Shown: positions 28,425 to 63,374 of the stretch, piece by piece | Layout: every line of letters starts with the position of its first letter | How positions within the stretch are numbered: the stretch's first letter is position 1 | Assembly: GCA_965113315.1 (NCBI GenBank) | Contig: OZ220365.1 | Direction: 5' to 3' (one strand) | DNA length: 64,000 nucleotides | DNA from: Podarcis vaucheri | Lineage: Eukaryota | Notes under the pieces: model-generated | What the model saw: only the letters and a program-made list of their open reading frames with translations | What the model was told of the DNA's origin: nothing | Database searches by the model: none | Made by a program: the position numbers and the translations under genes

Positions 28425-29030
28425 GTGCCGCGGCTGCGGATCGCGGCCGTTTCCTCGCCCCGTCTCCACCCCCGCCTCGCGGTTTAGGCCTAGTAACGGC
28501 CTAGAGGTCGGCCTCCCGCCGGTGGGGCGCCACCGGACCGCGGACTCGCCGCGCTTTTCCCTGGGCCTGGGATCGCGGCCTCCCGGCTGCCGGGCCCTTC
28601 CGGGCTGCTTTTTCCCCCGACCTTGCTGGTCCGCTGGGGAGCTTCCGAGCGCCCGGCCCGGCTCCGTCGGGCGAGGCGCGGTGAGTGGCCTTGCTCCTGC
28701 TCGGCCCCAGGAGCTCGGGGTGTGGCGGAGTTTACGCGGCCGAGGATTGCCGCCGCCTCCTTGCCCCCCCACCCCTACCTGTGTTTAGGCCTAGCGTCGG
28801 CCTAGAGAGCGGTCTCCCACCGGTGGGGCTCCCGACGGGCGGCGGACGCGCCGCGCCTTTCCCCGGTTTGGGGGGTTGTGGCCTCACGGCCGCCGGGCCC
28901 TGCCGGGCTGTTTCCCCCTCCTGACCCTGCTTACCTGCGGGGAGGCTTCGGACCACGCCAGGCCCGGCTCCGTCGGTGCGGCCGCCGCGCTCGGTCCTCC
29001 GCCATTGGTGCGGCGCGCTCCTGCGTGGCC
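28425..29030 (+). repeat. Diverged tandem duplication (about 301-bp period) forming a CpG island in the YR element leader
   Basis: GTTTAGGCCTAG at 28482 and 28783, each followed by matching blocks (CGGCCTAGAG, CCGGTGGGGC, GCCGGGCCCT, GGCCCGGCTCCGTCGG). Confidence 0.8.
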
Positions 29031-29408: not shown

Positions 29409-29653
29409 GTTATAATAATCATTAGAATTACTTAAATTAATTACCTTCCTTGAATTTTATTTCTGTAGTAATTTTAGTTCTTCTAGTAGTGGTTAGTCAA
29501 GGGTTCCTAAAGTGTTTTGGCTCACTAGTAGGTACTTTCCAGTGCTCCAGGGTTAAAGGCCTTTGGCCATTCTTGGTTTCCTTTATCCAAAGCTAACAGT
29601 CTGCTCGGGTTTATTGATACAGGCCTTCTTTATCCTTTGTTTAACTAGCAGGT

Positions 29654-31192: not shown

Positions 31193-32798
31193 CACACTGA
31201 CCTCCTTGGCGTACACTCCTGTTCGCCTACAGCCCCTGCAGTTATGGCTGCAGTCTTACCCTAATAGGGAGGCTGCGGCCTATTTGTTCAATGGTTTTTC
31301 TGTGGGTTTTCGGATTCCTGTAGCCATGCCTCCCATGGCACAGAATCCTGCTAATCAAAAGTCAATTCGCGAGCTGCCTCAGGTCGCTCGCAAGAAGATA
31401 GCGAAGGAAGTGGCCATGCAGTGCATGGCTGGCCCCTTTGATAGACCTCCCTTTCATAATTTGCATGTATCCCCATTGGGTATCGTGCCTAAAAAGGCCC
31501 CTGGTGAATTTCGTTTAATTCATAATTTGTCACATCCCACAGGCACGTCAGTCAATGACGTTATTCCTCCAGAGCTATGCTCCGTAAGGTATGCTTCTCT
31601 TGATCAAGCGATCAAGATGATTAGGAAGTTCGGCCATGCAGCATTATTGGCGAAACGCGATATTGAATCAGCCTTTCGCCTTTTGCCAATTCACCCAGAG
31701 GACTTTTGGCTGCTTGGCTTTCAGTTTGAGGGCAGCTATTACTTTGACAAGGCCATGCCTATGGGATGTTCCGTGGCATGTGCCGCCTTTGAGGCATTTA
31801 GTACCTTTTTGGAGTGGGCCCTAAAATTTAAAACAGGTTTGGGCGGAGTCACTCGTTATTTGGATGATTTTTTATTGGCCTCGGCGAGCGATTCTGGCGA
31901 GTGCGCAATGTTGCTGCAGGCCTTTGCTGACATTACGCAGGAACTGGGAGTTCCGCTTGCAGCCGACAAGACGGAGGGTCCTTCCACCCAGCTCACTTAC
32001 TTGGGTATCCTATTGGATACTGTGGCTCAAACTTCCAGCTTGCCAGAGGACAAGTTGGTTGCTTTGAGGAGGATCATTGAGGACCTACTTCCTCTGAAAA
32101 AGGTGTCTCTCAGGCAGCTCCAGTCACTTTTGGGACACCTGAATTTCGCCTGTAGAGTGGTGGCCCCCGGGCGCCCCTTCTGTTCACGCTTGGCGCGCCT
32201 CACTGTAGGGTTGAAGGCTCCGCATCATCGGGTTCGCCTCTCTAGTGAGGTGCGAGCGGATCTTCGGATCTGGCTTGAATTCCTGAAGGAATTCAATGGG
32301 GTGTCCTTATGGCAGGACACTTTGAACCTGCATAATGACTTCCAGGTGCATTCCGATGCGGCAGGCTCCTTGGGTTTCGGCCTATATTGGAAGGGTCGAT
32401 GGTGCGCTCAGCGTTGGCCGGCTGAGTGGCAGGGAAGTGAGATTACGCGGGATCTAACTTTTCTCGAGTTTTTTCCAATTGCAGTGGCAGTACATTTGTG
32501 GGTCGAGGAGTTCAGGAACCGCCGTGTCTGCTTCTGGACCGATAACCAGGCGGTGGTGAATGTGTTGGCCAAGCTTTCATCTCGCTCGCCCAGGGTGTCT
32601 GCCCTTTTGCGAGCATTTGTGCTGCATTGCTTACGTTGTAATATAGTTTTTTCTGCACGTTTTATTCCCGGGGTGTCAAATGAAATTGCTGATGCTCTGT
32701 CCCGTTTTCAGATGGAGCGGTTCAGACTTCTGGTTCCAGAGGCGCGGATACGTCCGGAATATTTCCCGGATCATCTCTGGAACCTTGGCAGCAATTAG
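30732..32798 (+). CDS. Reverse transcriptase-RNase H of DIRS/Ngaro-type retrotransposon (real start probably about 31100-31190; overlaps ORF1 in another frame)
   Basis: Uninterrupted frame. RT motifs SPLGIVPKK, FRLIHNLS, KRDIESAFRLLPIHP, MPMGC and YLDDFL. RNase H motifs SDAAGSLGFG, LEFFPI, TDNQAVV and NEIADALSR. Confidence 0.93.
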   Translation: MLLWQPILGGLFTCLFTYPLFVLLSPKLVNGLRSNTMKISGAERPRFPRPVGIVGISMFGPPTWPLSLIRKRQNSRNLSRQPLGLVAGLYAGTLTRAPVSDRGADMPMSVKSAMVRMLPPLVLVVAGPFEGAEGVLSKATNQPPPLQLQLQGNDTLTSLAYTPVRLQPLQLWLQSYPNREAAAYLFNGFSVGFRIPVAMPPMAQNPANQKSIRELPQVARKKIAKEVAMQCMAGPFDRPPFHNLHVSPLGIVPKKAPGEFRLIHNLSHPTGTSVNDVIPPELCSVRYASLDQAIKMIRKFGHAALLAKRDIESAFRLLPIHPEDFWLLGFQFEGSYYFDKAMPMGCSVACAAFEAFSTFLEWALKFKTGLGGVTRYLDDFLLASASDSGECAMLLQAFADITQELGVPLAADKTEGPSTQLTYLGILLDTVAQTSSLPEDKLVALRRIIEDLLPLKKVSLRQLQSLLGHLNFACRVVAPGRPFCSRLARLTVGLKAPHHRVRLSSEVRADLRIWLEFLKEFNGVSLWQDTLNLHNDFQVHSDAAGSLGFGLYWKGRWCAQRWPAEWQGSEITRDLTFLEFFPIAVAVHLWVEEFRNRRVCFWTDNQAVVNVLAKLSSRSPRVSALLRAFVLHCLRCNIVFSARFIPGVSNEIADALSRFQMERFRLLVPEARIRPEYFPDHLWNLGSN

Positions 32799-33682
32799 TC
32801 CTTCAGGGAGTAGCGGCATCGGTTTCCCCTTCTACCTTGAGATCTTATAGTAAAGCATGGGCCGATTTTCAGGCATTTGTACAACAGTCAGCTAGGTTAC
32901 TAGTTGGGGTCCCCCCCACCTCTTCGCAGGTGCTACAATATTTAGCCCATTTATTTCAGCTAGGGCGTGCGGGTAGGACACTTAGGATGCAGGCAGCTGC
33001 TATATCATTTTTCTGTAAGACACATTTTGATACCGATCCTTGTGCAAAATTTGTTGTTTGCAGAGCCCTAGAGGGTTGGGGCCGTCTATGTCCTTCTCAG
33101 CCGACAAACCGACGCCCCATCTCGTTTGAATTATTGAGCAAGATGCGCAAAAGTCTGAGGGTGGTGTGTTGGTCTACCTATGAGGCTCGCCTTTTCGCGG
33201 CTGCCTTTTCAATCGCCTTCTTTGGAGCTTTGAGAGTAGGTGAATTGGTAGTGGAAGACCACCGGGATGGTCGTTCCAGGGGCCTTCTGCTCCAGGATGT
33301 GCAATTATCCCCTGCTGAACTGAGAATTACGATTCGGTATTCAAAGACGGATCAGAGGGGCAAGGGCGCTCTCATTTGTCTTCCTGCCACTGGGGCGGCA
33401 GGCCCTTGCCCAGTAAAGGATGTTAATAAGTATCTAGCGGTGCGAGCGCACGGGGATGGGCCGCTGCTTCGGCACGAGAATGGGTCACCCCTTACAAGGC
33501 ACCAGTTCGCAGGGGTGATGCGTAAAGCTATCCTGGCCTGTGGTGGCGTGGCCACAGATTTTGCCCCCCATTCCTTCAGGATAGGGGCTGCCACGACTGC
33601 AGCTCATTGGGGTTTGTCAGCTGCTAGAATTCAGGATTTGGGGCGTTGGAGGTCAAATGCGTTCAAGGGATATGTTCGTTAA
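32714..33682 (+). CDS. Tyrosine recombinase (phage-integrase family) of the retrotransposon
   Basis: Catalytic motifs FGALRVGEL (R), SKTDQ (K), HSFRIGAAT (H-x-x-R), GRW and KGYVR (Y). The frame is open from 32693 and overlaps the RT C-terminus. There is no ATG before the domain (the ORF track starts at TTG 32837). The start given is the first full codon after the putative acceptor at 32711. Confidence 0.92.
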   Translation, partial: GAVQTSGSRGADTSGIFPGSSLEPWQQLVLQGVAASVSPSTLRSYSKAWADFQAFVQQSARLLVGVPPTSSQVLQYLAHLFQLGRAGRTLRMQAAAISFFCKTHFDTDPCAKFVVCRALEGWGRLCPSQPTNRRPISFELLSKMRKSLRVVCWSTYEARLFAAAFSIAFFGALRVGELVVEDHRDGRSRGLLLQDVQLSPAELRITIRYSKTDQRGKGALICLPATGAAGPCPVKDVNKYLAVRAHGDGPLLRHENGSPLTRHQFAGVMRKAILACGGVATDFAPHSFRIGAATTAAHWGLSAARIQDLGRWRSNAFKGYVR

Positions 33683-33725
33683 CAATTTTAGTGTCTGATA
33701 CTGTTTTGGTTTATTTATCCCAGGT

Positions 33726-34298
33726 CTGCCAGCCGTACGCGTCTGGATGGTGGGCCACAGCATCATCCATTGGGCTGGTGTCGCAGCACGGCAGTCCGGA
33801 TTGGGTCCAGGTCTCGGCCTTCCTTCACACGTTCGGGTGTCCTGGCTGTCCAGATGAGGAATGCGGTGGTCGGAGTTTTTGCCACGAATTCGAAGGCAGT
33901 TGCTCTTGGAAGGGCCGCCAGAGGCTATTGTGGTGCAGCTGGGAGAGAATGACCTGGTTGCCATGGACTGCTTATCATTACGTGCTGCAATTTTGGCTGA
34001 CCTGGAGACGCTGCGGGCAATGGTGCCCACAGCCAAGTTATTTTGGTCTAAGCTTTTGCAACGACGCGTTTGGTTGGGAAGTCGTTGCCCGGTTGCCACA
34101 GAAAGGGCCAGGAAACGCATCAATGCAGCAGTTTCCAAAAGGATTGTGGAACTGGGTGGAGAGGTGATCTTTCACCATGAAATCTCCTATCCTGCGGCAG
34201 CTCTCTTTAGGGCCGATGGAGTGCACCTTTCTGCTTCTGGGAATGAGGTTTGGCTAGGTGCGGTGGTGGCCAAGCTGAGGTCTTGGCTGGGGTTGTGA
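33726..34298 (+). pseudogene. SGNH/GDSL hydrolase (esterase) ORF of the retrotransposon, with one premature TGA
   Basis: Block I VWMVGHS (33741-33761), block II RxGMRW, block III QLGENDL and block V DGVHLS. In-frame TGA at 33855-33857, probably CGA>TGA CpG decay. The downstream part is ORF 33861..34298. Confidence 0.85.
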
Positions 34299-34654: not shown

Positions 34655-36612
34655 GTTGTGGCCAAAATTATGCCAAAAACCTTAAACAAAAATTGATGTG
34701 TGAAGTGTGAATTATTGGGGGGCTACTGTGACTCAACACGCAACCTAAGAAATGTGTTTTGTTTTTAGCTGGCTGCTTTCAGAATTTAACAGTAGCAGAG
34801 AGTGAATTTTGCTGTAATAATTGTATAAAGATTTGCTTCCCTTTATATAAAAAAATCCAAATTGATAAAATGGTTTGCCAACTCCATGTCCTCTTTATAA
34901 TTAAAACCAAATCATTAACTCAGTTGGGCATCACTGCTCATGTGTGAAGGAACACTCTGGAACACACAGGGATATTGCAAACCTAATTGTTTTTGACACT
35001 GACAATATTATTAAAGGTCCCCTTTGGATTGTCAGGTAATGTTACAGTCATTTGAGTTCTACACATTTAAGTACCTGATGAAAAAGTAAGATTCGTCATT
35101 TACCATAAAAGGAGCAGAGCTTCTTCTTCTTTTTCGTAGGCCCAAAATTCAGAGCGCAAAGAGTATTTAAAAACACACTTGCATTTGCTGGCCTTTGAGA
35201 AAAATTCAAATGCTTTGAAGCTTCCAGATTCACTCTTTGGTTCAAAACCTTTGGGAAGTGTGCCTGAATATTTTCAACAACATTTCTGCTCGGGTTAATG
35301 CAGGAATCATTGCAGCCATGTTTTAAATGGCTATATTTGCTGGATAATTACCATTCATTTGGCAATAAGCTAGATTCAGCCTGCTTCATAGAGTGCTGCA
35401 GTTTTATTTAATAATTTAAGCCACATTTCTGTTTGTTCAGTACCAGCTCAAAATACTTTGTAATGCTGGCAGTTCTTTGCCTGTTTATAATTTATTTATC
35501 CCATTATTCTTGGATTGCAGACCTAATCGTTCCACTAGGTTTGTTCTTTTGAAATAACTAGCAATACATTTATGTTTATGGATGATATACGTAGGCTATA
35601 TTTATCATGCCGCTTCTGATTTGACATGCTGCTTGGGCTATCAAAGATTATCTGAGGAACTTGATGCACCGTACTGAAGGTGTTAAGATAGGTTTAAGGT
35701 GCTATTTTAAGGAAATATAAATTGCTTGGGAAGAGCCATTCATTCTTCTTTAACTTGAGGTAGATTTGTGAAGCCATTTGATGACCTGACTGTGAGTTCC
35801 TTTCCTTCTGCATTTTCCTATGTGCTGTAGGGTTGCACAATTTCATTTAGGAACTTGGTAGCTGTGCTGCGACATGGGAAGGAGGGGAAAGATCCCTCAC
35901 TCACTTCATGCAGATCCTTCGAAGGCCTAGTCCTGAAATGCATACCATTTGAATGGCAATGTCCATCAACTGTGGGGGGCCCTAGCCCCTAAAATATTTT
36001 ATTGGGGGGCTGAAAGGACCTTAGCCCCTAGGAGTTGGCTCCTATGGTGCACTGCTTAGGGTGACCTGCTTACACATCACCAAAACAGAACACCAGAAAA
36101 AGAGACTGCAGATTTTCAATTTAGATGAATAGGTGCCAATTTAGAAATGATGGATTGTATCCAACTATGTTTTCTTCAGAGTAGACCCACAGGACATGAA
36201 CAGACCCAAATTAGTTATGTCCACTAATTTCAGTGGGTCTGTTCTGAATATGACTAATGCTGGATACAACCTAGTTACAGCACCATAATTTTAACAGAAA
36301 TGCAAGACATCTGCAGCTACAAAAGCTGAGGCTGCTGAACAAAATATTGGACAGGGGTCTGCCAAGGGGCATTATTGCTGTTAATTTTTTTGGATCTTAC
36401 AATTTATGTGGAAATTGTTCTATTTGGTTGGGTACTTTTTGAAATTCTGTTTATTGTTTATGACTACTTTTGTTACGTTTCTAGTCGTGTATTTTTTTTA
36501 AGTTGTAAGCTGCATTGGACATTATTTTAACTTTAGAAAGACAGTATACAAATAAAATGACTGATTGACTGATTGATTGGTCTCACCATAGTGGGAAAGG
36601 CTATGACCGAGT

Positions 36613-37474
36613 TGTGGACCACAGGTATGAAGTTTACGGCATGTAATGCCTTGAGAGAGACTATTATGAAAATGATTTACAGGTGGTACATGACCCCAGT
36701 CAAGCTTGCAAAAATCTATCATTTGCCCGATAATAAATGTTGGAAATGTAAAGAAACTGAAGGTACATTCTTTCACCTTTGGTGGACGTGCCCAAGGATT
36801 AAGGCTTTCTGGGAAATGATATATAATGAACTGAAAAAGGTATTTAAATATACCTTCTTGAAGAAACCAGAGGCCTTCCTCCTGGGCATAGTCGGCCAAT
36901 TGGTGCTAAAGAAGGATAGAACTTTTTTTATGTACGCTACAACAGCAGCAAGAATACTCATTGCAAAGTATTAGAAGACACAAGATTTACCCACTCTGGA
37001 AGAATGGCAGATGAAGCTGATGGACTATATGGAACTGGCAGAAATGACTGGCAGAATCCGAGACCAGGGAGAAGAGTCGGTGGAAGAAGATTGGAAGAAA
37101 TTTAAAGACTACCTACAGAAATATTGTAAAATTAATGAATGTTAGAATGATGTTGGATAGAAATTAAGTGGTTTCCAGCTGTAATGTTTTAAGGGAATAT
37201 GAAAAATGGGTTGTTAATAGAGAAAAATCTAATGTTACTATTTTAAGACCAAAGATTAGGATAAACAAAGAGGGTAAGGATTTGCTGAGCCAACAAATTG
37301 AACTGGAATACAAAAAAGGGAGGTATGAGGAGGTCCGGGAAACAAGCTAAGGAAAATAAGTAATAGAAAAATGGAGTGGTTTTTAATCATTTTTGTTTTG
37401 TTTTGTTTTTTGTTTTTCATTTTGTATTGTAATATCTTTAAAAAATCTTAATAAATATCTTATATATATATAAA
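36613..37474 (+). mobile_element. 5'-truncated L1-clade LINE
   Basis: ORF2 C-terminus [18 protein letters not shown] with a premature TAG at 36972. AATAAA and A-rich tail. 17-bp TSD AAAGGCTATGACCGAGT at 36596-36612 and 37475-37491. Confidence 0.9.
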
Positions 37475-43436: not shown

Positions 43437-44774
43437 CTTTGGGGGGTTGCCCAGTTTCACCCATCAGTGTGACCCTATTCACCATGAAGTCCCCCTATTC
43501 ACGATTAAGAGCCAGTCTCAGCTAAGAGGCTATGATCAAGTCTAGCCCTTGCACCAAGCAGAGTAACTCGCACAATCTGAGTTGAATTATTCTCACTGCC
43601 ACATAGCGTTTACCCTCTGCCTGTACTGAATAAAACATAGCCTTACTTAAGTCCCACAATATTGTATCTAGCATCTTTATCTAATCCAGATGCAAAATCA
43701 AGGGGGCACAATTAAAGTTGATTTGGCGCATTTACTCAACAAATCTCCCCTTTTCAGAGCAGAAAGTGTGGGATAACAGTTGACATCAGATAGCCTCCCT
43801 GCAAATGAATCAGAATGAATTGTCTGGAAGCAATCAATGTTTGACTCACATCATGTTATTTTCGCCTCTTACAATCAATTCATATTTCTTTTCCTGGAAT
43901 GCAAAAAATAAAAATAAAAAAAAATCTGAGGCCACAAATTAGCTGGCAGTCACTTCCGGTGCCATGGATGCTACTCCCTTAATCACAGAAGAATTGCGTT
44001 TGCAAACGGACGTGAGCTCTGCCACCTTGCTCTAAGTCAGTAAACAGCATTATCAGTAAATCACGTGCCTAGCCCTTGGGAAGAATTTATTATTATTCCC
44101 CCAACAACTCAGCATCAAGGATAAGTTACAGCTGTAATTCTAAATAGCTTTGATACCCTTGCTTGGTGACTGCATTGTTGTAATAAGCCGGCAGCCTGCC
44201 AAACATCCCTCCAGGGCTGTTATTCCTCTTTCAGCTATATCATTTTAATTTACATGGAAATTATCAATACTTTAAAATGGTACTTGTCCATCAAGCTTGT
44301 TTGTTTCCCATCTCCCTAAAGTGCTGCAATCCAAATCCAGATCATTGATTGGTTGAGCAGCCATAATAGCTCCTCCACATTCTATTCATATTGCTTCCCT
44401 CATTCTGCTCTAACTGACCCAAGACCAGCTGTTAGTGACTGTTCCTCTGCTAATCCTCACTAAATCACACTGCATTTCCTCCATTATTTAGTTATGCTAC
44501 AGCATTTAGTTATGCTTTTGATGTTGTTACATGGTGGCTGGTGTAATTATATTATACAAATATTTATCTACCAGGGCTGTCAGTCAGTTAAGACCTGTAA
44601 TCCTGTGCACAGATATGCATCTCTAAACTCCATGGAAGATTGGCATCAGAGGTATAGTAATAGAATGTTGAGTTGCAATCTAACATCCCAGTCCAAAGTA
44701 TGTTTACTCAGAATAAGTCCTGTAGCTATCAGGAAAACTTAATGTCCAATGTGTTTTGAACCATGGTCTAAATA

Positions 44775-45000
44775 CAGTGGTACTTCGGGTTGCATACACT
44801 TCAGGTTACAGACTCGGCTAACCCAGAAATATTGCTTCAGGTTAAGAACTTTGCTTCAGGATGAGAACAGAAATTCTGCTCCAGCAGTGCAGCAGCAGCA
44901 GGAGGCCCCAATAGCTAAAGTGGTGCTTCAGGTTAAGAACAGTTTCAGGTTAAGTACGGACCTCCGGAACAAATTAAGTACTTAACCCGAGGTACCACTG
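44775..45000 (-). mobile_element. Tc1/mariner MITE, family A (inverted)
   Basis: Same TIRs and TA flanks; internal sequence is reverse-complemented. Confidence 0.85.
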
Positions 45001-48000
45001 TACAATATAACCCTGCATATATGATTTATTGGATTTTTATTTCAGCCATCCTTTAGAAGGAACCCAGGGTGGCTATATGGCATTGGGTCAAAATTATACA
45101 AAAATCAAAAGCTACTACACTTACATCTATGTGAACCCTATTAACTTCAGCAGGGCTTAAGCATATGGAACTGTGCCCAGGTTGAACAGAAAACTAGTGG
45201 ATAACTCTGTTCTGATCCATACTTTAGTTTGGAAGGTGCGGTTCATTATAGGAATTTGCAAAGTCCAGAAACAATCCTAGTGTGGGCCATAACAAATCAT
45301 GTTCAATGCAGATGTAAATGGCTGCTTGTGTAGTGATCCTTAATTACATTTGGGTGAAATTCAACATTGTGCTAGCATAATTGTTCCATCAATGCAAGCA
45401 TTTCTCTGGGTGTTCTCTTGCCCTTTGAGGGTGGATTTGAAGGGAGGGGACACAACAGGGATAAGAAAGCCTTGTTGCACTGGTGCAAGTCCTTGTGCTG
45501 GCTTCTCCTGGTTAGTTGAATCTGGTCCTTTTGTTTTGAAACATGAATTTAAAGCCCCTGAAACAAAAGCACACCCCAAATCTAAGGGCTTATCCACACT
45601 TCCTCTAGTGCCACTGCTTCCCTGCCCCACCCCCACCCTGGTAAAATCACTGTTTAGTGTTCAATTAGAGCAAACGGCAATTTGGGTTTGTTCCACATTG
45701 CCATTTGTTCCGCTCTATCGCTAAAGAGCGGGTTTTCCCTTGGAAAGGAGCAGGGTAAGGAGAAAGCCATTCAAACCCATGCCTAGAAAGTACATGTCGG
45801 GCGAGAAACTGCTCAGGCCCATGCTTTGTAGGCAAGAAACAAGCAGAAGTGTGGGTGAGCCTTAAGGCTGTATAGCTGTATTTCATCAATGTTCATCAAT
45901 GGAGCATTGCCCAAATAGAGAACTTCATGGGAATTCCTAGCCCAGGAGTGTGCCTCCTCATTTTATCAAGTGTACATACCACAGAATACAACTGAGGAGC
46001 TTTTGCCTATTTCATGGAGCCATTTGTTTATGACAACTGCCGTTGGCGTTATTCGCCAGTTGCCTAGCTGGATAGCATTATCAGCCATACCTATTTGTAT
46101 TGTTATATTAATGGATCATTTATATCAGTTAGTTTTTTGTAGATACTCTGATTAGTTTATTAATTTGTATATACTGACTTTAGAACAAATTCAGAGGTGG
46201 ATGCCTTTGCCTATTGTAATTCAAAGCACATTAAGAAACCATTTCTTGTTTGTTAAAAAGGTCCTGTAGAGGTTAAATTCAAAACAGGGCCATTTCATAT
46301 TTTCGTCTACTTTGCATGATTTATGCAAAATAGATCAAACTTTCCATTGTGTTACTTTATGGAAGTATGTGTTTCTAAATATATTTCTATGTATGTGCCC
46401 CTTTATAAATATTTAAATGGTCTTTCACTACTTCTTTTTGAAAAATGGTAAAGGTTCGTCGTTACACTCTCTGGTATCATGGGCATGATAGAATAATATC
46501 CCCTCATTATCATGCCTATTCATAGAAACATGAGTACATCAAAAGTTAGGATGCTTCTGAGATTTTTCTCATCCCTTTCCTGAAAATGAGTATGAACACA
46601 TTGTTTGCTCTCTTTCTTTTTTTAGGGCTGTTTGTATCAATATGGCCATACAGGGGGACATAATTGGGTTCAATTATGAGGAGACAGACTGGGGATACCA
46701 CCTCCCTCCTCTCTCCTTCTCTGTGGTGTTTTGCCAGTGCACAAACTGCAGCCACTGGAGCCGGATTGGTTTGATGGCAGCAGGGCTTGTTCAGGATGCT
46801 CTAAAAGCACTAAAGGATTATTACCTGCAATAATATGGCTCTTTTCTTTTCTTTTCTTTTCTTTTCTTTTCTTTTTTGCAAGGTTTGAACTGCAGGCAGT
46901 TAAAAAGGGTGAGGGAAAGTGTGCATTATCCGGTTCCATAATTAAATTTTAGAAATTATCCTAGTTAATTCAGAAGTAGTGCAACACTAATCAGAGTAAA
47001 TCAGAGGACCAATAGAAGAAAAGAACCGTGGAAATCATCCCAATCCTTAGTAGTATTAGTAGTATAAAAGTGGGCCCAACACTTTTCTCTTACAAAAGCC
47101 TCTCACCAACCATCCCAGACTAGGTTTGATATTTTGTGTATTGTCTTAATTATGCTGTTGGTTTATTGCCTCTAAATTTTATATATTTCAATAGCTGTGT
47201 TTTAGCTTTGTAATGTAAGGCCTCCTGGGATATATGTTAAAAAGGGTGGTGTATTGATACCTTAAACAATGGGTACAGCAATCTGAACCCCTTATTGTTG
47301 AGTGGGTGAAAATGAGTGTTCTGAGGGTGCATAGAGTCTGAGCCAGCCTGGAATCTTCTGGATCCTGAACCAGCCCCACTGCTATTATATGCTAGCTTTA
47401 GGCTTAATCTGAGGCCAGTCACTGCAGCAGCTCCTGGCTGGCACAGAGATTTGCCTGCCCATCCACCTTCCACCCTGTCTGGCATAAGCAGATGTGGTGA
47501 TAGCACTTGTCCATCAAGTGTCACTGCTGCCTAGCCAAAGTTTGGACTGCAGCCTAAAAAGAGTCAGGAGAGAGAGTCTTTGTCTATTGAATAGACACCT
47601 CATTTTCCTAAGGGGCATAACAGCTGATCAGTTCCGTGATGGGATCTGTACAAGTCCTTCACAGTGCTAACGCTTTGCTAGAAAGTGAAAGCCAAGACTG
47701 TGTCCATAATCAGATTGCTGGATGTCAGGTTTATTGTCTCACACATTATGCTGCTGCATCTTGAGTATAGCAGATTTGTGCAGCAACAACAACAAAACAA
47801 AAACCCCAAGCTATATGTGTTATAAAAACGACAAATTATTAATCTGGAATATTCATACTCAGTTCATTCCCAGAGTCTCTTTGGTCATTTGCCACCTCAA
47901 AGCCTATGACTTATGTAGAGTTTATTAACTCCAATCTTTCTTCTCTTGTGCTAACTCTAGAAGGGAATAGCTTAAAAGAATTTCATTTTGGAAACAAATC

Positions 48001-48519: not shown

Positions 48520-49971
48520 GTTTTTTGTTTATAATAATATTTATTAGTTTTCCAACAAATTGAACACAACACTACCAAAAAACAAAGGAAAAAATACAAT
48601 AATACAATACAATACAAAAACAAAAACAAAACAAAACTGCAAAGCACTAACATACAACTAACAAAACAAAACAAAAACCATTTAAAACACAGTCCAATTT
48701 CAATATCTTATCTTTCTTTCACTAATTTCCATGACCTCCTCACACCTCCCTTTTTGTATTCCACTTCTATTAACTGTTTCAGCAATTCCTTTCCATCTTC
48801 CTCTGTTTTCTATCCTATAATTGTCTTAACACATTCTAACCTTATTTTTCCCTTTAATGCTCTAATAATCTATTTTCATACTTAATTCCTTATAACATTT
48901 CTACTAAAGCCATATAACTTCATTCCAACATCTTTCTAACATTCATTAATTTTACAGTATTTCTGTAAATAGTCTTTAAACTTTTTCCAGTCTTCTTCCA
49001 CCGACTCTTCTCTCTGGTCTCGGATTCTGCCAGTCATTTCCGCCAATTCCATGTAGTCCATCAACTTCATCTGCCATTCTTCCCTGGTGGGTAAATCTTG
49101 TGTCTTCCAATATTTCGCGATGAGTATTCTTGCTGCTGTTGTTGCATACATAAAAAAAGTTCTATCCTTCTTTAACACCAATTGGCCGACCATGCCCAGG
49201 AGAAAGGCCTCTGGTTTCTTAAGGAAGGTATATTTAAATACCTTTTTCATTTCATTATAAATCATCTCCCAGAATGCCTTAATCCTTGGGCACGTCCACC
49301 AAAGGTGAAAGAATGTACCTTCAGTCTCATTACGTTTCCATTATTATTGGGCAAATGGTAGATTTTTTGAAGCTTAATTGGTGTCATGTACCACCTATAA
49401 ATCATTTTCATTAAATTTTCTCTTAAGGCATTACATGCCGTAAATTTCATACCTGTGGTCCATAACCGTTCCCAGTCAGCCATCATTATGTCATGTCCAA
49501 CATCTTGTGCCCATTTGATCATAGCTGATTTCACCGTTTCTTCCTGAGTGTTCCATTTCAACAGCAAGTTATACATTCTTGACAAATTCTTAGTTTTTGG
49601 ATCTAACAATTCTGTTTCCAATTTTGATTTTTCCACCTGGAACCCAACTTTTTTGTCCAATTTGTATGCCTCCATTATTTGATAGTAATGGAGCCAATCT
49701 CGCACTTTGTTTTTCAATTTTTCAAAGCTCTGCAATTTTATTCTCTCCCCATCTTGTTCCAGAATTTCCCAATATTTCAGCCATTTGGCCTCCATATTGA
49801 CTTTTTTTGTGTGCCTTCGCTTCCATTGGTGACAACCATCTTGGGGTTTTTTTCCTAACAAATCCTTATATCTTATCCAAACATTAAACAATCCTTTTCT
49901 AACAATATGCTTTTTAAATGCTTTATGTGCTTTTACCTTATCATACCACAAATATGCATGTCATCCGAATA
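48520..49971 (-). mobile_element. 5'-truncated L1-clade LINE (same family as 36613-37474)
   Basis: Frameshifted ORF2 C-terminus (ORFs 49262..49951 and 48936..49265), nearly identical in protein to the other copies. TSD GCAACTGAGGT at 48509-48519 and 49972-49982. Confidence 0.9.
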
Positions 49972-54200: not shown

Positions 54201-54336
54201 GCACAATATTGCCTTTGAGCAATGTTTTGAGCCAGGGTTGGTTGGCCCAAATAGATTGGCCAGCAGGCGACACAGTTTTCAAGAACTAACCTCAGTAGCA
54301 GGGAACACTTGGGGAAGTCTGGCCTCTAAATACGTA

Positions 54337-54562
54337 CAGTGGTACCTCGGGTTAAGTACTTAATTTGTTCCGGAGGTCTGTTCCTAACCTGAAACTATTC
54401 TTAACCTGAAGCACCACTTTAGCTAATGGGGCTTCCCACTGCTGCCGCGCAACCGGAACACAATTTCTGTTCTCATCCTGAAGCAAAGTTCTTAACCCGA
54501 GGTAATATTTCTGGGTTAGCTGAGTCTGTAACCTGAAGCGTATGTAACCTGAGGTACCACTG
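54337..54562 (+). mobile_element. Tc1/mariner MITE, family A
   Basis: Same TIRs and TA flanks. Confidence 0.85.
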
Positions 54563-55473
54563 TAATTATATTACATACCTCCAACAACTCAAGGCGAAAA
54601 ACCAGGACACTATCTTCAGGGGCTGCACTCCTGCATTAGTCATGTGACTAGTGCAAGATTGCAGCCCTGGAAAAAAAGCACGGTATGAGATTGCAGCACA
54701 AAATTGTGGTGCCCCAAATGGCCACTGCACTCTCAAGCAAAAAACCAGAATGTCCTGGTTTTATCGGGACATTTGAGGGGCATGATATTACAGATCAAAT
54801 ACTTTTAAAACAGCACAGGCAATCATGTCTTGTGTCTTCATGTCCATGTATATCTTTGTTTCCCAATGTCTGTTTGCATTTTCTCAGAAGCATTTCTCTA
54901 CTTAAGAGGCGCCTAGCATTTTCCATTCAATTTCACTTGCTCAGTATTTTTGCCCAGGAGAGTTCCAGGTGTCAGCTTGCTTGGTTTTGTGGATTGTAGC
55001 AAACACAGAGCGATACTGCCCTAGGCCTTAAACTGTTGGATGTTTGAAAAGAACAACAGGGAAGAAAATGCTTCATTATTGTGTCGCTATGCCCTTTCCC
55101 TGAAGCACTGGCAAGCAGCATCAATTCCTGCCAACAGGACACTCTTCTGTGTGGACGAATGACCCCACCAATTAAACAATGTTTATGCCCTGCCTCTTTC
55201 AATGATTTTTTGGCTAGCAAAATGTTTAGGATTGAATTGGAAAATAAATGTCTGTGAAAATAGGGGGGAGGGAATGTTTTTCTATCCATCTTATTTATTG
55301 CATTTATAAGGGACCTCATAAAATACAACTTTGGGGCTTGGTGCAAAGATCAAAATGACTAAAAATGTAACAATAAAACTATCCTACAATACAATACACA
55401 GGAACTAAATTAAAAACCAAATGCACAACCAGCACAATAAGACCATATACAGCACAGAACCAAAACAGCCAGC

Positions 55474-57040: not shown

Positions 57041-57784
57041 TTTTTTTAATAAAATTTTTATTGGTTTTACAGAAATTTTTTATAACAAACAAACATATAA
57101 AAAGACAAACAAACATGCATAATTTCATAATATCTTTTCTTAAACTTCTTTTCTGCGACTCCCCCATACCTCCCCTTTCTGCATCCTCATGTCCAAATTT
57201 TTATAGCAACTTGTAACTGTTTTTTCCACTCTAATTCATCTTAGTCCTTTCTTAATCAAATCTTACATTACTGCAACCCTTTCTTTCTAGAAAACCTCGA
57301 CATTCTAACATTCATCAAGTTTATAATAGTCCTTGAGATAGATCTTAAATTTCTTCCAGTCTTCTTCCGCAGTCTCCTTTCCCTGATCACGAATTCTGCT
57401 AGTCATCTCCGCCAATGTCATGTAGTCAATCACTTTCATCTGCCACTCTTCCAAGGTGGGTAGGTCTTGTGTCTTCCAATACTTTGCGATCAGTATTCTT
57501 GCTGCTGTTGTTGCATACATAAAGAAAGTTCTGTCCTTCTTTGGCACTAGTTGGCCGACAATGCCCAAGAGAAAGGCCTCTGGTTTCTTAAGGAAAGTAT
57601 ACTTAAATACCTTTTTCATTTCATTATATATCATTTCCCAGAAAGCCTTAATCTTCGGGCATGTCCACCAAAGATGATAAAAAGACCTTCAGTTTCCTTA
57701 CATTTCCAGCATTTGTTATCGGGCAAATGGTAAATTTTTGCTAGCTTGACTGGGGTCATGTACCACCTGTAAATCATTTTCATA
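57041..57784 (-). mobile_element. 5'-truncated L1-clade LINE
   Basis: ORF2 C-terminus with CWKC..H..C knuckle region (frameshifted) and poly(A) tail. 20-bp TSD TGTTTGTAGGCAAATTCCTT at 57021-57040 and 57785-57804. Confidence 0.9.
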
Positions 57785-58081
57785 TGTTTGTAGGCAAATT
57801 CCTTCCTGGCTCTGAATACGGCAATCATTGGGAACCACATGAAGGTCAGTTAGAGTGCAAGGAGGTGAAACGAGGTCAGAACAAGACAAAGTACAGTTCA
57901 GCATGAAAGAGAGGGAGAGTTTGCTCTTCTGCCGACTGCACTGAAAGTGCCAGGTGGAGTTGGCTTTTAAAGGTAGCCAGCAGACTGCAGTGGTGGACTG
58001 CCTGTCCCGGTCCACCAGTGAAGCTTCACTCACCGAGGTGCCCATGATTGGGCAGTTAAAATTAAGGTATATTGTGGGCAT

Positions 58082-58551
58082 TGTTACCATAAAGCACCAA
58101 TGCAGCAGCAAGCAAAGGCTTCAGCAGCTCAGTCAGCTGCTTGTGGCTGGAAAGCCAAACAGGATGTTTGTGACTGTTGCCATGGAAACAAAGGGGCAGT
58201 CCATTCTGTACTGAGCACCGGATGTTAGCTCAGAGTGTGAGTCATATGACCTGTACTGGAAGTAAATGTGTGGAGTTTCTTCTTGCTGTTGTCGAGTGCA
58301 GACATGTTTTCTCTGTACTGATATGAGAGACAGAAATAAAAGATGTAAATAGTTTTCTGTCTGCTTCTTTCCCCTCCTGGGGGACACCAAAGGGGAGAGA
58401 GGAAGAACGGTGTGTTCCTCTCACACATCTGAGATGAATCGCCGAGACCTCGCCTGCTTATCAGCAGAGTGGAGACGCGGGGAGGTCGACAGGAATATCT
58501 GCCGGTGCCTACGCTGTGGCACATTCCTCTGACCCAGGCAGAATTCCAGCA
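58082..58551 (+). repeat. 5' LTR of copia element
   Basis: TGTTACC...CCAGCA, a direct repeat of 61623-62092. I saw one mismatch (CCAGCA versus CCAACA). AATAAA at 58335. Confidence 0.95.
58176..58244 (+). promoter_or_regulatory. RFX X-box and AP-1 motifs in the copia LTR U3 region (duplicated in the 3' LTR)
   Basis: GTTGCCATGGAAAC at 58176-58189 and TGAGTCA at 58238-58244. Confidence 0.55.
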
Positions 58552-58552
58552 G

Positions 58553-58570
58553 TGGTAGCAGAGGATGGTT
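58553..58570 (+). promoter_or_regulatory. Primer-binding site complementary to the 3' end of initiator tRNA-Met
   Basis: TGGTAGCAGAGGATGGTT, 1 nt after the 5' LTR, is the reverse complement of the vertebrate tRNA-iMet 3' end (..AACCAUCCUCUGCUACCA). Confidence 0.9.
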
Positions 58571-59105
58571 GCTGTCCATCGGACATCTGGATGAGAGGTT
58601 GGTGAATTGTCCTCCTCTGCTTCCATGGAAGCCTGAAGTGAGAGGCTGATTCTCTGCAGCCAGAAGCTGACCAGAAGAAGCTGACAGCCAAGCAGATACT
58701 CAAGGTACGAGACTTTTAAGGGCTTAAAAGAGTGAATGCAGAATGATTCATTCTCTGCTTCACGGAAAGCGAGTGTGGGAAAGCAGCTCCAACTTAGAAG
58801 AGGACTGCATTCCAGGCATTCTTGTGGTTTCCTGCTCAAGGAAAGGAATGCGCTGTTGCCTAGCAACGTCCTTCAGAAGGCTGTGCCTCAGAGAGGAGAA
58901 ATGGAAAGTTACTCGGAGGGCTGGACAGTCAGACTATGCTTCAGAGAGGCGAAAACAAAGTTTTGTTATGACTAGGTCCTCACGAACTGCTGGAAGGGAC
59001 TTTCCAACGCAGCCAGTGTCAGAGTTGCCAGGTGTCAAGAGTGTAAACAAGCCAGCTATTGGATTTTAGAGGCTTGTGTTTTTAGAGTCACTGCAAGGAC
59101 TCAAA

Positions 59106-61769
59106 ATGGATGCCAAGAAGGGGGGAGGCTTGCCTTCTCCACCCCTCCTGACCAATGACAATTATTCATCTTGGTCTGTAAAGATGAAGGCCCTGCTGCA
59201 GAATCAGAGACTGTTTGGGGAGATTGAGAATCCCATCCCTGCAGCACCAACGCGTGCTTGGGAGTCACAGAATGTGAAGGCTAGGACTGCTATAATTCTG
59301 TGTGTGTCAGACTCGCAGCTTGTGCATATACAGCATTTGGAATTTGCGCAAGAGGTTTGGAACACGCTGCGTACAACGCATCAGAGAGATGCTGGTTCTT
59401 CAGCGTTGCTGTATTTTGAGAAGTTGACCAATCTGAGATTAGCGCCTGATGGAGATGTTCAAGCGCACCTGACAGAGATGAAGTTCCTGCGTCAACAAAT
59501 GGTGGAACGCAATTTCCGTCTACAGGAGGAAGTGTTTTGCTTCATGATAATAAACAGCCTAAACCGGACCTACAAGGTTGTTGCCAGTCAGCTTGGTTCG
59601 CTACCTGCTCAGCAGCTAACCGCGGAAAGGGTCTGTGCCGTCGTCCTGAACGAACACGACAGACTTGCTGCACTGGAAGTGAAAGACAGAAGGAGGCAAG
59701 AACAGAGTTCAAATCTTCCCACTGATGGTGCTACTGGAGAGCATGCCATAGCATTGAGTGCCGTCCGATGCCACAATTGTGGACAGACTGGGCATCTACA
59801 GCGAAATTGTAGGAAGCCGCGACAGTCAAGAGGAGCCAAGAACAGCTCAACGAAGCCTGAGGCGTCAAGCAAAAGCCGTACCAAGTGCCAGGTGAATCCT
59901 GCAAAGGCTATGATGGCGAAAGGAACCACGCCAGATGTTGGGAACGCATTCATAATCGATACCGACGCCACGAAGCATCTCTGCCCACACAGAGAACTGT
60001 TTTCGACGTTGAAGAAGCAAAGCTTCACTGTGAAACAAGCCAACGGTCAAGAACTGGAAGCGACCGGAATTGGAACTGTGTATCTTGAAAGTCTGAACTT
60101 GACTATAAGCGATGTTTACCTGGTTCCAGAACTGAAATTTAGTCTGCTGAGTGCTTCGCAGATTGCAAAGAAGGGACTAAAACTGTACTATGATGCTAAA
60201 AGATGCAAGATCTACAAAGATGGAGAACTGTTTCTTACTGCTAAAGAGAAAGATGGACTGTATTTGTTGACTTTTGATCAAAGTGATTACATGAAATGTA
60301 ATACTTCTGATTCTAACGAAATTTCTCTTGCAGGTGTGACCAGTGTGAACACCAGGAAGGTGTCCAAGAAGGTCCACAGAGCTTTTCAGCGGGTGTATGC
60401 TGATGTGATCGGTCCTTTAGAACCATCTAGAGGCGGTGCAAAATATTACCTTGTGTGTGTTGATTGTTACACAAATTATTCTTGGGTTTATATGATGAAG
60501 AAACCGCAGGAAACTTTAGAAAAGTTTCAGGAGTTTTGTGACAAGGTTAAAAGTATGCATGATGCTAACATTGATTGTCTTTTCACAGATGAGAAGCCAG
60601 TTTTTCTTTTACAGGATTTCCAGAGGTTCCTGGATGAGAAAGGGATAAGACACAAACTTGCCACTTCCGAAGAAGCATGGAAGAAATGTGTCTGTGTTAG
60701 GGTGAACAAAGAATTGCAAAAGGGGATGCATGCGCAATTGCTAAGTTCACATTTGCCACATGATTATTGGGCTGAATCTTTAGCGTCCTATCTTCATGTG
60801 TGGTTGAGGAAAGTCTCAACAGAGTTGGGATGTTCTCCTTTTGAGAAGCTGTTTAATAGAAAACCTTCTGTTGCCTATTTTAAGGTTTTCGGGTCTCATG
60901 TGAGAACAGAAACTCCAAGTGGGGTAAAGAATGCCAGAGGCATCTTTGTAGGTTATGAAAAAGGTCTCTACAGAGTAATTTTGTCTGAATCTGGTCAGGT
61001 GATTCTCACAAAGTTTCTAGAGAGTGCTCCTGAACGGGAAAGAGTGATTGTTCAAACTTTTTCCACAGATGATTCTGATGATGATGATGATGATGATGAG
61101 TTTGATCTTATTGAGTTCAGTGGTACTGATGATGAAGACACTGATAGCTCAGACAGCTCAGTTGTCACAGTCATTGAGAGGAAATCTCAAATGATGACTA
61201 GACCCTCAGAAGAGGAAGATAAACCACAGATTAAGCTTAGTACTGGTTCTCCAAAGAGTTCAGAGGCTGAACCAGAAAGCAGAGAAGAGCAGCAGCTCTT
61301 ACGAAGGTCTGAGAGAGCAACGAAGGGTATACCACCCAAGAGGTATTCAGAGGAGTTTGCTAACCTAGCATATGTTGCTGTTGTAAACGATCAAGGACAG
61401 ATTGAAGCAGTGTCTAAGTCAGAGACAAAGGCACAACAGAGAGTTGTTAACCAAGGAAATGCTAAGTCACACAACCAGAGAGGTACATTGGTGAAACCAG
61501 TGGCGGGTAGTTCCAAGGGTGGAACTGAAACAACAGGGGAATGTTATAAGTATAACAACTGTTTGTTTTCTTCTCTGGATGACGCTTTGCTCGCAGCACG
61601 CATTGATACTTTAGGGGGAGTATGTTACCATAAAGCACCAATGCAGCAGCAAGCAAAGGCTTCAGCAGCTCAGTCAGCTGCTTGTGGCTGGAAAGCCAAA
61701 CAGGATGTTTGTGACTGTTGCCATGGAAACAAAGGGGCAGTCCATTCTGTACTGAGCACCGGATGTTAG
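59106..61769 (+). CDS. Copia Gag-protease-integrase-like polyprotein (887 aa from ATG), lacking RT/RNase H
   Basis: Gag N-terminus LTNDNYSSWSVKMKALL, zinc knuckle CHNCGQTGHLQRNC, protease IIDTDATKHL and GIGTV, GLYLL, integrase core VYADVIGP..VDCYTNYSWVY..FTD..WAE..FKVFGS..GIFVGY, and post-IN LRRSERATKGIPPKRY. The stop codon lies inside the 3' LTR. Confidence 0.9.
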   Translation: MDAKKGGGLPSPPLLTNDNYSSWSVKMKALLQNQRLFGEIENPIPAAPTRAWESQNVKARTAIILCVSDSQLVHIQHLEFAQEVWNTLRTTHQRDAGSSALLYFEKLTNLRLAPDGDVQAHLTEMKFLRQQMVERNFRLQEEVFCFMIINSLNRTYKVVASQLGSLPAQQLTAERVCAVVLNEHDRLAALEVKDRRRQEQSSNLPTDGATGEHAIALSAVRCHNCGQTGHLQRNCRKPRQSRGAKNSSTKPEASSKSRTKCQVNPAKAMMAKGTTPDVGNAFIIDTDATKHLCPHRELFSTLKKQSFTVKQANGQELEATGIGTVYLESLNLTISDVYLVPELKFSLLSASQIAKKGLKLYYDAKRCKIYKDGELFLTAKEKDGLYLLTFDQSDYMKCNTSDSNEISLAGVTSVNTRKVSKKVHRAFQRVYADVIGPLEPSRGGAKYYLVCVDCYTNYSWVYMMKKPQETLEKFQEFCDKVKSMHDANIDCLFTDEKPVFLLQDFQRFLDEKGIRHKLATSEEAWKKCVCVRVNKELQKGMHAQLLSSHLPHDYWAESLASYLHVWLRKVSTELGCSPFEKLFNRKPSVAYFKVFGSHVRTETPSGVKNARGIFVGYEKGLYRVILSESGQVILTKFLESAPERERVIVQTFSTDDSDDDDDDDEFDLIEFSGTDDEDTDSSDSSVVTVIERKSQMMTRPSEEEDKPQIKLSTGSPKSSEAEPESREEQQLLRRSERATKGIPPKRYSEEFANLAYVAVVNDQGQIEAVSKSETKAQQRVVNQGNAKSHNQRGTLVKPVAGSSKGGTETTGECYKYNNCLFSSLDDALLAARIDTLGGVCYHKAPMQQQAKASAAQSAACGWKAKQDVCDCCHGNKGAVHSVLSTGC

Positions 61770-62092
61770 CTCAGAGTGTGAGTCATATGACCTGTACTGG
61801 AAGTAAATGTGTGGAGTTTCTTCTTGCTGTTGTCGAGTGCAGACATGTTTTCTCTGTACTGATATGAGAGACAGAAATAAAAGATGTAAATAGTTTTCTG
61901 TCTGCTTCTTTCCCCTCCTGGGGGACACCAAAGGGGAGAGAGGAAGAACGGTGTGTTCCTCTCACACATCTGAGATGAATCGCCGAGACCTCGCCTGCTT
62001 ATCAGCAGAGTGGAGACGCGGGGAGGTCGACAGGAATATCTGCCGGTGCCTACGCTGTGGCACATTCCTCTGACCCAGGCAGAATTCCAACA
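61623..62092 (+). repeat. 3' LTR of copia element
   Basis: TGTTACC...CCAACA, preceded by the purine tract AGGGGGAG and followed by TSD GGCAT. Confidence 0.95.
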
Positions 62093-62206
62093 GGCATATC
62101 CCACCCTGCAATGAGGCTGGCCCAAATAAACTACAATGGCTAGCTGTGGATGAGAATATCTGTATCTGGGGAGAGTGGCCAGCCCTCGAGGGGCCACAAC
62201 CGCAGC

Positions 62207-62345
62207 CGTCCCAGAACAGATTAAGTTGCCACTAACAGTGTCACTGTCTTGTCTGAACTGAGCTTGTTTGTGATCCCTCATCCAGTCCATTACCACAGCC
62301 AGGCACCGGTCCAGCCGTTCTACCACCTCGTCACACTCCAAAAAC
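62207..62345 (-). mobile_element. Degraded L2-type LINE RT fragment (upstream part of the same split copy)
   Basis: VERLDRCLAVVMDWMR..K.. resembles the L2/CR1 motif L..CL..V..WM..NKL.LN..KT, which normally lies just upstream of the 56544 segment. Confidence 0.65.
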
Positions 62346-63374
62346 GGAGAATTAGAGCTGCGTGCTTCCAACTCTGTCTCAGGCACTGACTATAAAGGTC
62401 ACACTTCTGTCCTGTTTCCTAACATTCATTTAATGCTGCAGTACCCATTACATTATGGAACTGTGCCCTTTTGATCAATATACTTCCATGTCACACTAAA
62501 TTTCATTCACACCAGTGTGTGTGGTGTGACACAAGAATGAATGTCATGGAGCAACATCACTATTTGACCACCCTTTCTGCACATGCATGTTTCTGTCCCC
62601 CCATGATTCTCCCATGAAACTGGTGGGAAAGAACTGTTTGCTAATATACCACCCCAAATTTAATCACTCTAGCCCCATGATTAGCTTTTAGGCTCAATAG
62701 AAGCAATCAACAAAGAAATAAACTTCCTCTATATTCTGCTAAATATTCAGAGGCGGCTTTTACACTGTGTTAAAAATCACATCAAATGCAAAAATTATCA
62801 AGCAAGAAAACCTTCCAGAAAACAAAATACACTACCATCTAAACGCAGCCCAGGACTGTTTAGAGCAGCATGATGTTGCTTTAAAAGTAATCTGCAAATG
62901 AGGCCTTAGCTTGTGTGAGGATGCTGAGGGTTTTCTGTGTTTTTCAGTTTTGATAAAGCTTTCAATTATTATTTTAACCATGGTTTTAATATAATTATAT
63001 TTTGTGATTGCTGAATGCTCCCCTGGGAGGAAGGGCATGTTAGAAAACGAATAAGTAAACTCATCATCATCATCATCAACCCACAATTCCCTGGGAGAGG
63101 GATTTAAGTCATGTTACCATTTCAATTTGGATATTGGTCCACAACCCTAAGGCACTTTCACACATCACAATTCCCAACATGGAGATCACTCTCTGCATAG
63201 CATATAAACCATTTGAAACTTAGCTGAAAAAAGAAAAGAAAAGAAAAACCACCACAAAGTATACTGATCAGAGATTGGGCAGGCAATATGAGCAGAGGCT
63301 CATGGTGGTTTCTGTGCAAGAAACTGTAACATATGAAACAGCCTTAAGTGACATTTCGCTAGCCATATACTGAG

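Follow-up and report, generated by a model that had tools for sequence, protein, structure and literature searches.

Results

Structure of the element

The sequence that we analyzed, hereafter the window, is a 64,000-nt stretch of contig OZ220365.1 from the lizard Podarcis vaucheri (assembly GCA_965113315.1). At positions 58082 to 62092, it contains a 4,011-bp Ty1/copia (Pseudoviridae) retrotransposon whose single open reading frame (ORF) encodes Gag, a protease, and an altered integrase, and from which reverse transcriptase (RT) is missing (Table 1). The two long terminal repeats (LTRs) are identical at 469 of 470 positions, the single mismatch being 58549 G / 62090 A. That mismatch falls 3 bases from the terminus: the last four bases are AACA in the 3' LTR, the inverted counterpart of the initial TGTT, and AGCA in the 5' LTR. 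The pentamer GGCAT occurs on both flanks, a 5-bp match with a chance of about 0.001, and an 18-base primer-binding site, TGGTAGCAGAGGATGGTT, begins 1 base past the 5' LTR and presumably pairs with the 3' end of initiator tRNA-Met. With assumed rates of 3e-9 to 1e-9 substitutions per site per year, one mismatch in 470 bp corresponds to an insertion age of about 0.35 to 1 million years, with a wide interval of 0.01 to 6 million years, and about 3 substitutions (0.07 to 16) are expected in the ORF since insertion. A first-pass annotation, made from the sequence alone, had described near-identical LTRs, a target-site duplication, a primer-binding site, and a polypurine tract, and all of these were found, the tRNA assignment being a presumption. 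There was no further copy or solo LTR in the 64-kb window, and an Rfam scan returned nothing in the element and one chance-level match outside it.

Membership in Ty1/copia is indicated by the TG...CA LTR ends, the 5-bp duplication, the primer-binding site, and the polypurine tract, together with the single Gag-protease-integrase ORF and the copia-type order of its Pfam domains (PF14223, PF13961, PF22936, PF00665, and PF25597), in which the integrase directly follows the protease. In trees, the element nests among copia proteins.

Table 1. Features of the Ty1/copia element, in window coordinates
Feature	Positions	Strand	Basis
Left target-site duplication, GGCAT	58077..58081	+	sequence comparison
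5' LTR, 470 bp, TG...CA, AATAAA at 58335	58082..58551	+	LTR comparison
Primer-binding site, presumably of initiator tRNA-Met type	58553..58570	+	sequence
5' leader, presumed packaging region	58571..59105	+	no Pfam/Rfam match
Single ORF, 887 aa, Gag-protease-pseudo-integrase-tail	59106..61769	+	ORF call, Pfam
Gag capsid domain, aa 13-190	59142..59675	+	Pfam PF14223 E 1e-22; copia virus-like particle protein 8vvw E 4e-8
CCHC zinc knuckle, intact, aa 222-235	59769..59810	+	PF00098 above cut-off
Aspartic protease domain, aa 279-390, triad D-T-D at 59958-59966	59940..60275	+	PF22936 E 4e-18
Short spacer at site of deleted integrase HHCC domain	60276..60374	+	protease-integrase spacing
Putative pseudo-integrase core, aa 424-600: D433, D495 kept, V531 at catalytic E, flexible loop remodeled	60375..60905	+	Pfam, alignment, model
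Integrase C-terminal SH3-like domain	60906..61040	+	PF25597 E 1.5e-4; model
Acidic disordered linker with GAT repeat	61041..61295	+	sequence, model
Copia integrase/RT junction motif RRSER...PPKRY; likeness to full-length copia stops about here	61296..61385	+	tblastn, profile
Family-specific tail in place of RT/RNase H	61386..61622	+	alignment, profile
Polypurine tract, translated within ORF	61613..61620	+	sequence
3' LTR, carries last 48 codons of ORF and stop	61623..62092	+	LTR comparison
Right target-site duplication, GGCAT	62093..62097	+	sequence comparison

The ORF runs for 887 codons without a stop, and its final 48 codons lie within the 3' LTR (61623-61769). Pfam identified Retrotran_gag_2, zf-CCHC, Pol_BBD, rve, and SH3_retrovirus domains; the rve match scored 28.9 bits, under the cut-off of 32.6, with an integrase E value of 1.5e-6. 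Autonomous Ty1/copia elements carry RVT_2 and RNase H after the integrase, and no Pfam match to either was found in the ORF. When five other copia proteins were searched against the element in six frames with tblastn, no RT or RNase H was detected beyond the junction motif that precedes RT, and a profile covering what follows the integrase in 70 full-length copia proteins, likewise run in six frames, recovered the integrase/RT linker motif only. These searches bear out the earlier description of an element that lacks RT and RNase H and retains an intact Gag and CCHC knuckle in a frame free of stops.

Within the tail, the string SLDD resembled the YVDD of RT, and we rejected it as a remnant. 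Against a profile of copia RT/RNase H, residues 761 to 839 scored -1.6 bits, which was equaled by 36 of 500 shuffles (23 of 500 for the relative P0013, described below); Pfam and Atlas gave nothing usable, and a BLAST match to the start of RT hinged on the junction motif. Just before the polypurine tract, at 61542-61610, lies a motif with a predicted hairpin plus helix that is shared with the relatives P0002 and P0013. The motif, conserved across members that are only 42% identical, matches no Pfam family or RT profile and could represent either a small domain not described before or a signal in the RNA.

Relatives of the element

An exhaustive search of cluster representatives produced 20,265 matches, and the relatives described here are known as protein models. 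Closest to the window copy, at 74 to 88% identity, are gene models from Podarcis lilfordi and P. muralis; among the best 150 of the 20,265 matches were P0012 (85%), P0013 (42% in one stretch, aa 13-833), and P0014 (38%). The P. lilfordi model P0002 shares the tail of the window copy, and its frame continues into the same LTR-derived peptide, where 44 of 48 residues are identical. P0013, a model from Zootoca vivipara named FAM168A isoform X1, shares the tail motif and has no RVT_2. Four further models carry no information on RT: P0012 stops within the linker, and the other three (P0003, P0004, and P0210) are chimeric and fragmentary. In P0003, copia is joined to a class C G protein-coupled receptor model. 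The annotations of P0002, P0003, and P0013 name host genes (vomeronasal type-2 receptor 26-like; FAM168A isoform X1).

The models from P. lilfordi (P0002/P0004, P0012, and P0210) sit on three different contigs, and the same defective layout recurs in protein models on different contigs in three species, as judged from the proteins alone. Because the near-complete family models P0002 and P0013 also lack RT, the layout is not a one-off deletion. The first-pass annotation had proposed an RT-less family that supplies its own Gag, a view that was to be given up if other copies carried RT and RNase H with normal catalytic residues; P0002 and P0013 instead share the layout of the window copy.

P0014 (845 aa) has an intact HHCC finger, a DDE integrase, and an intact protease; RVT_2 is missing, and about 50 residues beyond the point where the junction motif starts, the protein ends. 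P0014 could represent an intermediate that had already lost RT or, just as plausibly, an autonomous element whose gene model is truncated. We also looked by back-translation for read-through of the polypurine tract in the relatives. A first pattern missed the window copy itself and fit P0014 only; a corrected, post hoc pattern fit the window copy, P0002, and P0013 and not P0014, a weak result given that 16 of 300 background stretches fit as well.

Altered catalytic motifs

We aligned 99 proteins, comprising the window copy, seven close relatives, and 91 others picked by rank and length. The integrase catalytic residues read DDE in 89 rows, DDV in three (window copy, P0012, and P0002), and GNV in one (P0013), with 6 rows gapped or otherwise different. 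In the window copy, both aspartates are thus present and only the glutamate position is changed; the same replacement of the glutamate is seen in P0004 and P0210. The HHCC pattern was found in 91 of 95 rows; it was missing from the window copy, P0012, P0013, and P0002, the last being uninformative because its gene model skips the region. Autonomous copia integrases combine HHCC with D,D35E, and the window copy has D-D-V and no HHCC. From the protease triad to the first integrase aspartate there are 146 residues in the window copy, 148 in P0012, and 146 in P0013 versus 184 to 205 in seven intact-type rows, a near-equal shortening that suggests a single deletion in an ancestor. The flexible loop, which in intact copia integrases is conserved better than any other part (0.63), has been remodeled in the altered integrase. 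A missing finger and the unusual contexts TDEKPVF and KKCVCVRVNK had been reported earlier, and the sequence reads as quoted.

In a separate pattern, 14 of the 27 integrase differences between the window copy and P0012 fall in 35 residues (aa 498-532, about 60597-60701; alpha2-alpha3, beta5, and the flexible loop), which is a fast-changing surface or a recombination tract. An Atlas search with the integrase part returned ordinary integrase clusters only.

The protease tells a different story. In the same alignment, the triad reads DSG in 86 rows, DTG in 5, DSA in 5, and DTD in 1, with 2 gaps, so that the window copy has the sole DTD among 97 triads. All six of the nearest relatives that cover the motif (P0002, P0003, P0012, P0013, P0014, and P0020) have D-T-G or D-S-G; P0002, P0003, P0012, and P0013 thus retain the D-S/T-G of autonomous copia proteases, from which the window copy departs. 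The D-T-D reported earlier at 59958-59966 is therefore present in this copy and does not extend to the family. Wherever they cover them, P0012, P0004, and P0210 carry the altered integrase motifs of the window copy, and since an altered integrase recurs in gene models from Podarcis (85 to 88% identical) and Zootoca (42%) while D-T-D occurs in the window copy only, the alteration characterizes the family in the integrase but not in the protease. Judged by its motif, the protease of the window copy is probably dead; where the motif is intact, as in most members, the protease can presumably still process the polyprotein. D-T-D is either a private change or the mark of a young sub-lineage that borrows protease too. 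Whether it arose after insertion or was inherited is not decidable, because only about 3 ORF substitutions are expected since insertion and the placement of 5 of the 10 differences within 17 residues around the active site was rejected as a cluster, being not significant (scan P 0.16).

Phylogeny and rates

In an integrase tree of 29 rows, the rows with an altered integrase formed a clade (support, 100) that was sister to P0014 (99). The same grouping was recovered with Gag (96), with Gag plus protease in a quick tree (96), and with the protease alone (87). Along the stem leading to the altered clade, we estimated 0.22 changes per column for Gag and 0.23 for the protease versus 0.64 for the integrase, while the window-P0013 path after their split was similar in all three (1.27, 1.10, and 1.11, respectively). 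This suggests a burst of integrase change when catalysis was lost, followed by evolution at the rate of Gag. Of 67 columns that are well conserved in intact copia, 24 were kept in both the window copy and P0013, and 32 were changed in both, 14 of these 32 to the same residue.

Constraint on the integrase-like domain

Despite the loss of its catalytic motif, the integrase core is as well conserved as Gag. Between the window copy and P0013, identity was 85/177 in the core, without gaps, compared with 78/178 in Gag and 53/112 in the protease. Across the integrase, 104 of 221 residues were identical versus 41 of 165 in the linkers (p 8e-6), and the contrast held when the acidic linker was left out (18/85; p 3e-5). 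The linkers have many insertions and deletions and the core none in 177 columns. Under a neutral codon model, the chance of a stop-free core at this distance was 4e-5. Furthermore, radical replacements in the integrase were depleted relative to a neutral codon model in comparisons with P0013 (p ~5e-6), P0012 (7e-5), and P0002 (2e-5). The fit ran from window codons to partner residues with a kappa of 2.5, and it was similar at 1.5 and 4. Gag was likewise depleted. No depletion was seen in the protease against P0012 or in the tail and LTR part against P0002, comparisons with few differences and low power.

The domain also appears to retain its architecture. Of 54 hydrophobic-core columns, 47 and 48 are retained, and conservation peaks in helix alpha4 (14 of 20 residues identical), even though its glutamate has been lost. 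A structure model made from a deep alignment gave the core a predicted local distance difference test (pLDDT) score of about 97 and matched foamy-virus (retroviral) integrase cores at a root mean square deviation of about 3 A. A pseudo-enzyme is expected to have lost its catalytic motif within a domain under purifying selection; the first was observed directly and the second by protein-level proxies. On these grounds, the dead integrase looks like a maintained pseudo-enzyme. The first-pass annotation had described a diverged integrase remnant that stays open and had held that dN/dS of about 1 across it would count against its interpretation; our tests of identity, stop-free length, and radical replacement, used in place of dN/dS, indicate instead that the remnant is constrained.

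Neighboring sequences

Elsewhere in the window, an apparently intact tyrosine-recombinase retrotransposon of the DIRS/Ngaro type occupies 29645-34298 on the + strand. Its overlapping ORFs encode a Gag-like protein with a CCCH finger, an RT (PF00078, E 2e-11), and a tyrosine recombinase (PF00589, E 8e-5); a fourth ORF, at 33858-34298, has what we take to be SGNH-hydrolase-like motifs. Upstream of this element is a GC-rich tandem duplication of about 300 bp (28420-28913). An interspersed repeat of about 230 bp, probably a small DNA transposon, occurs in four copies in both orientations that are 87 to 94% alike (4510-4733, 15906-16142, 44769-45003, and 54332-54568). Finally, there are fragments at 36611-37174, 48654-49960, and 57301-57800 (84 to 91% alike), plus about 62200-62389, that resemble long interspersed nuclear elements (LINEs). 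Their LINE family assignments are presumptive, taken from translations, and they have no Pfam match. The copia element lies between the fragment at 57301-57800 and the different one at about 62200-62389.

Discussion

Our results point to a recent insertion from an old Ty1/copia lineage in lacertid lizards, one that is non-autonomous, relies on a helper for RT and active integrase, and carries a scaffold-like pseudo-integrase, an interpretation to which we assign a probability of about 0.6. The more general claim, that this is a mobile family with a pseudo-integrase constrained at the protein level, we regard as likely. Given what is understood of copia biology, the intact cis signals and young insertion imply that RT and active integrase came from another element.

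Several observations weigh against this interpretation. The measures of constraint are protein-level proxies and not dN/dS. The sole deep comparison is with P0013, which is possibly a domesticated gene, and P0012 and P0002, being 96% identical in the core, are not independent of one another. For the close pairs, the excess of identity in the integrase over the linkers vanished without the acidic linker (195/222 versus 37/43, p 0.8; 197/222 versus 45/55, p 0.18). Relative to Gag, the pseudo-integrase has evolved about twice as fast as the intact integrase of P0014 (tip, 0.29 versus 0.58), and constraint on it thus appears relaxed. Modeling from only the five family rows gave a pLDDT of 41, and since the confident model draws on 90-odd intact integrases, homology is the main support for the fold. 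Past the catalytic site, the window copy and P0013 have different basic residues, which does not favor a single shared DNA-binding surface. In addition, no RT-bearing close relative or helper above about 30% identity was found among the protein matches listed. This last absence is weak evidence because transposons are usually masked before gene annotation. Finally, nothing in our results tells a scaffold from an inhibitor or other roles.

The strongest alternative, although we consider it unlikely, is that the integrase region has been retained passively. Only Gag would be needed, and the frame would be kept open to avoid the mRNA decay that follows an early stop, or for genome length or RNA signals, with the domain simply folding without poisoning the particle. 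The doubled rate relative to Gag and the close-pair identity, no higher than that of non-acidic linkers, are what such retention would produce, and the ORF stays open through the tail, the polypurine tract, and the LTR, suggesting general selection against stops. Yet the bias toward conservative replacement is a signal at the level of protein, and it is absent from the tail and LTR part, where differences are few and power is low. Nor would passive retention readily account for zero insertions or deletions in 177 integrase columns when the linkers have many. Moreover, Gag-only elements such as the TR-GAG of plants and Bik of zebrafish move, by the cited accounts, without such a domain (PMC4350172, PMC8704663, PMC12067270).

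It is improbable, in our judgment, that the domain acts as a dominant-negative factor that poisons the helper's integration complex and so controls copy number, or that it serves the host, with members such as P0013 having been domesticated. In principle, folded non-catalytic subunits can inhibit multimeric enzymes, but an element has little to gain from blocking the helper integrase on which it depends. A host role has a precedent in the Gag of young zebrafish elements, which is described as serving the host (PMC12067270), and P0013 is annotated as an isoform of a host gene. Domesticated genes, however, are recognized by decayed LTRs and a fixed locus, whereas the window copy is young, with LTRs that match at 469 of 470 positions and a target-site duplication, and related models lie on different contigs. 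The end of P0013 also fits read-through from the polypurine tract into the LTR at the position seen in the window copy, a weak point in view of the 16 of 300 background stretches that fit.

Continued catalysis by the altered integrase through another acidic residue is very unlikely: Podarcis-type copies keep two of the three acidic residues, and all four family rows share a glutamate five residues downstream, but P0013 lacks all three (G, N, and V), the HHCC domain is gone, and the flexible loop is remodeled. A one-off deletion derivative with decaying protease and integrase, which would fit the private D-T-D and the lack of conservative bias among the 10 protease differences between the window copy and P0012 (p ~0.2), is hardly credible when P0002 and P0013 contradict it, when the same deletion size, replaced glutamate, and tail recur in proteins only 42% identical, and when the roughly 3 ORF substitutions (0.07 to 16) expected since insertion fall far below the differences from intact copia.

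If the pseudo-integrase is instead maintained for the parasite, its RNA would be made from the 5' LTR and translated into Gag-protease-pseudo-integrase, and Gag supplied in cis would favor packaging of the element's own RNA. Pol from an autonomous copia helper would enter the particles as well; the helper RT would copy the RNA from the tRNA-Met primer and the polypurine tract, and the helper integrase would insert the cDNA with a 5-bp duplication. The pseudo-integrase may bind the element's nucleic acid and/or pair with the helper integrase, and helper Pol would then act on parasite particles. We put forward tentatively that it serves as a non-catalytic scaffold that draws helper Pol into those particles by such binding. 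A more specific version, which is speculative and for now somewhat doubtful, is that the pseudo-enzyme captures helper Pol or occupies the non-catalytic positions within a mixed integration complex, with the result that parasite cDNA is preferred, and that functions were lost stepwise: RT first, as in P0014, then integrase catalysis, and then protease catalysis in the sub-lineage of the window copy.

The lizard lineage is a variant on known Gag-carrying non-autonomous elements. Compared with autonomous Ty1/copia, it has no RT or RNase H, an integrase without HHCC and the catalytic glutamate, and an ORF that extends into the 3' LTR. Copia elements are mobile in squamates, as illustrated by a Copia-6-like insertion in corn-snake OCA2, which is given as 5.8 kb, compared with 4.0 kb for the lizard element (PMC4657000). 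P0014, the nearest relative with intact HHCC and DDE, also lacks RVT_2, but its integrase looks active from its motifs.

The TR-GAG elements of plants resemble the lizard element in being about 4 kb long, with LTRs, primer-binding site, polypurine tract, 5-bp duplication, one Gag ORF, no RT, movement in trans, and a partner that is sometimes not found, going by the cited account (PMC4350172). At 4,011 bp, the lizard element is marginally over the 4-kb filter given there, and its structure otherwise corresponds. TR-GAG elements were, however, defined by having no similarity to protease, integrase, RT, or RNase H (Chaparro 2015, PMC4350172), whereas the lizard element keeps a protease (E 4e-18) and a constrained integrase-like domain (E 1.5e-6). 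Mobility of TR-GAG has been reported (PMC8704663), and a later tool is described as allowing Gag plus protease (PMC6022998). Among vertebrates, the zebrafish BHIKHARI families Bik-1 and Bik-2 are also recently mobile, Gag-encoding, without RT, and in need of a partner; they differ in being related to retroviruses and, as the cited account presents them, in having no pol components and hence no pseudo-integrase (PMC12067270). The earlier statement that Gag-retaining non-autonomous elements are known mainly from plants was therefore too narrow, given Bik-1 and Bik-2 (PMC12067270). Class II mutants of HIV-1 integrase are described as revealing non-catalytic roles in particle maturation and RNA placement (PMC11054761). 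There, one active integrase does both jobs; the lizard lineage appears to keep the non-catalytic part only, in a parasite.

In a literature search that was mostly of open-access papers and did not extend to repeat catalogues or supplements, so that earlier cataloguing is possible, we found no account of this lizard copia family, nor of any non-autonomous element with a conserved pseudo-integrase. The mammalian MaLR elements are a further vertebrate family that is mobile, encodes Gag, and lacks RT. To our knowledge, the non-autonomous LTR elements described so far have kept Gag only, all but Gag, or nothing.

One practical consequence is that elements of this copia family have been misannotated as host genes, including a vomeronasal receptor and a FAM168A isoform, in lizard assemblies. 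More generally, that RT was discarded while a dead integrase was conserved across lineages only 42% identical implies a selectable, non-enzymatic function for integrase in the copia life cycle. The family may thus offer a natural separation-of-function variant for the other jobs of integrase, such as RNA placement, Pol recruitment, and cDNA protection, as well as a handle on how parasitic elements compete for helper enzymes. If the pseudo-enzyme does capture its helper, it would be a case in which evolution has separated the structural functions of a retroelement integrase from its catalytic ones.

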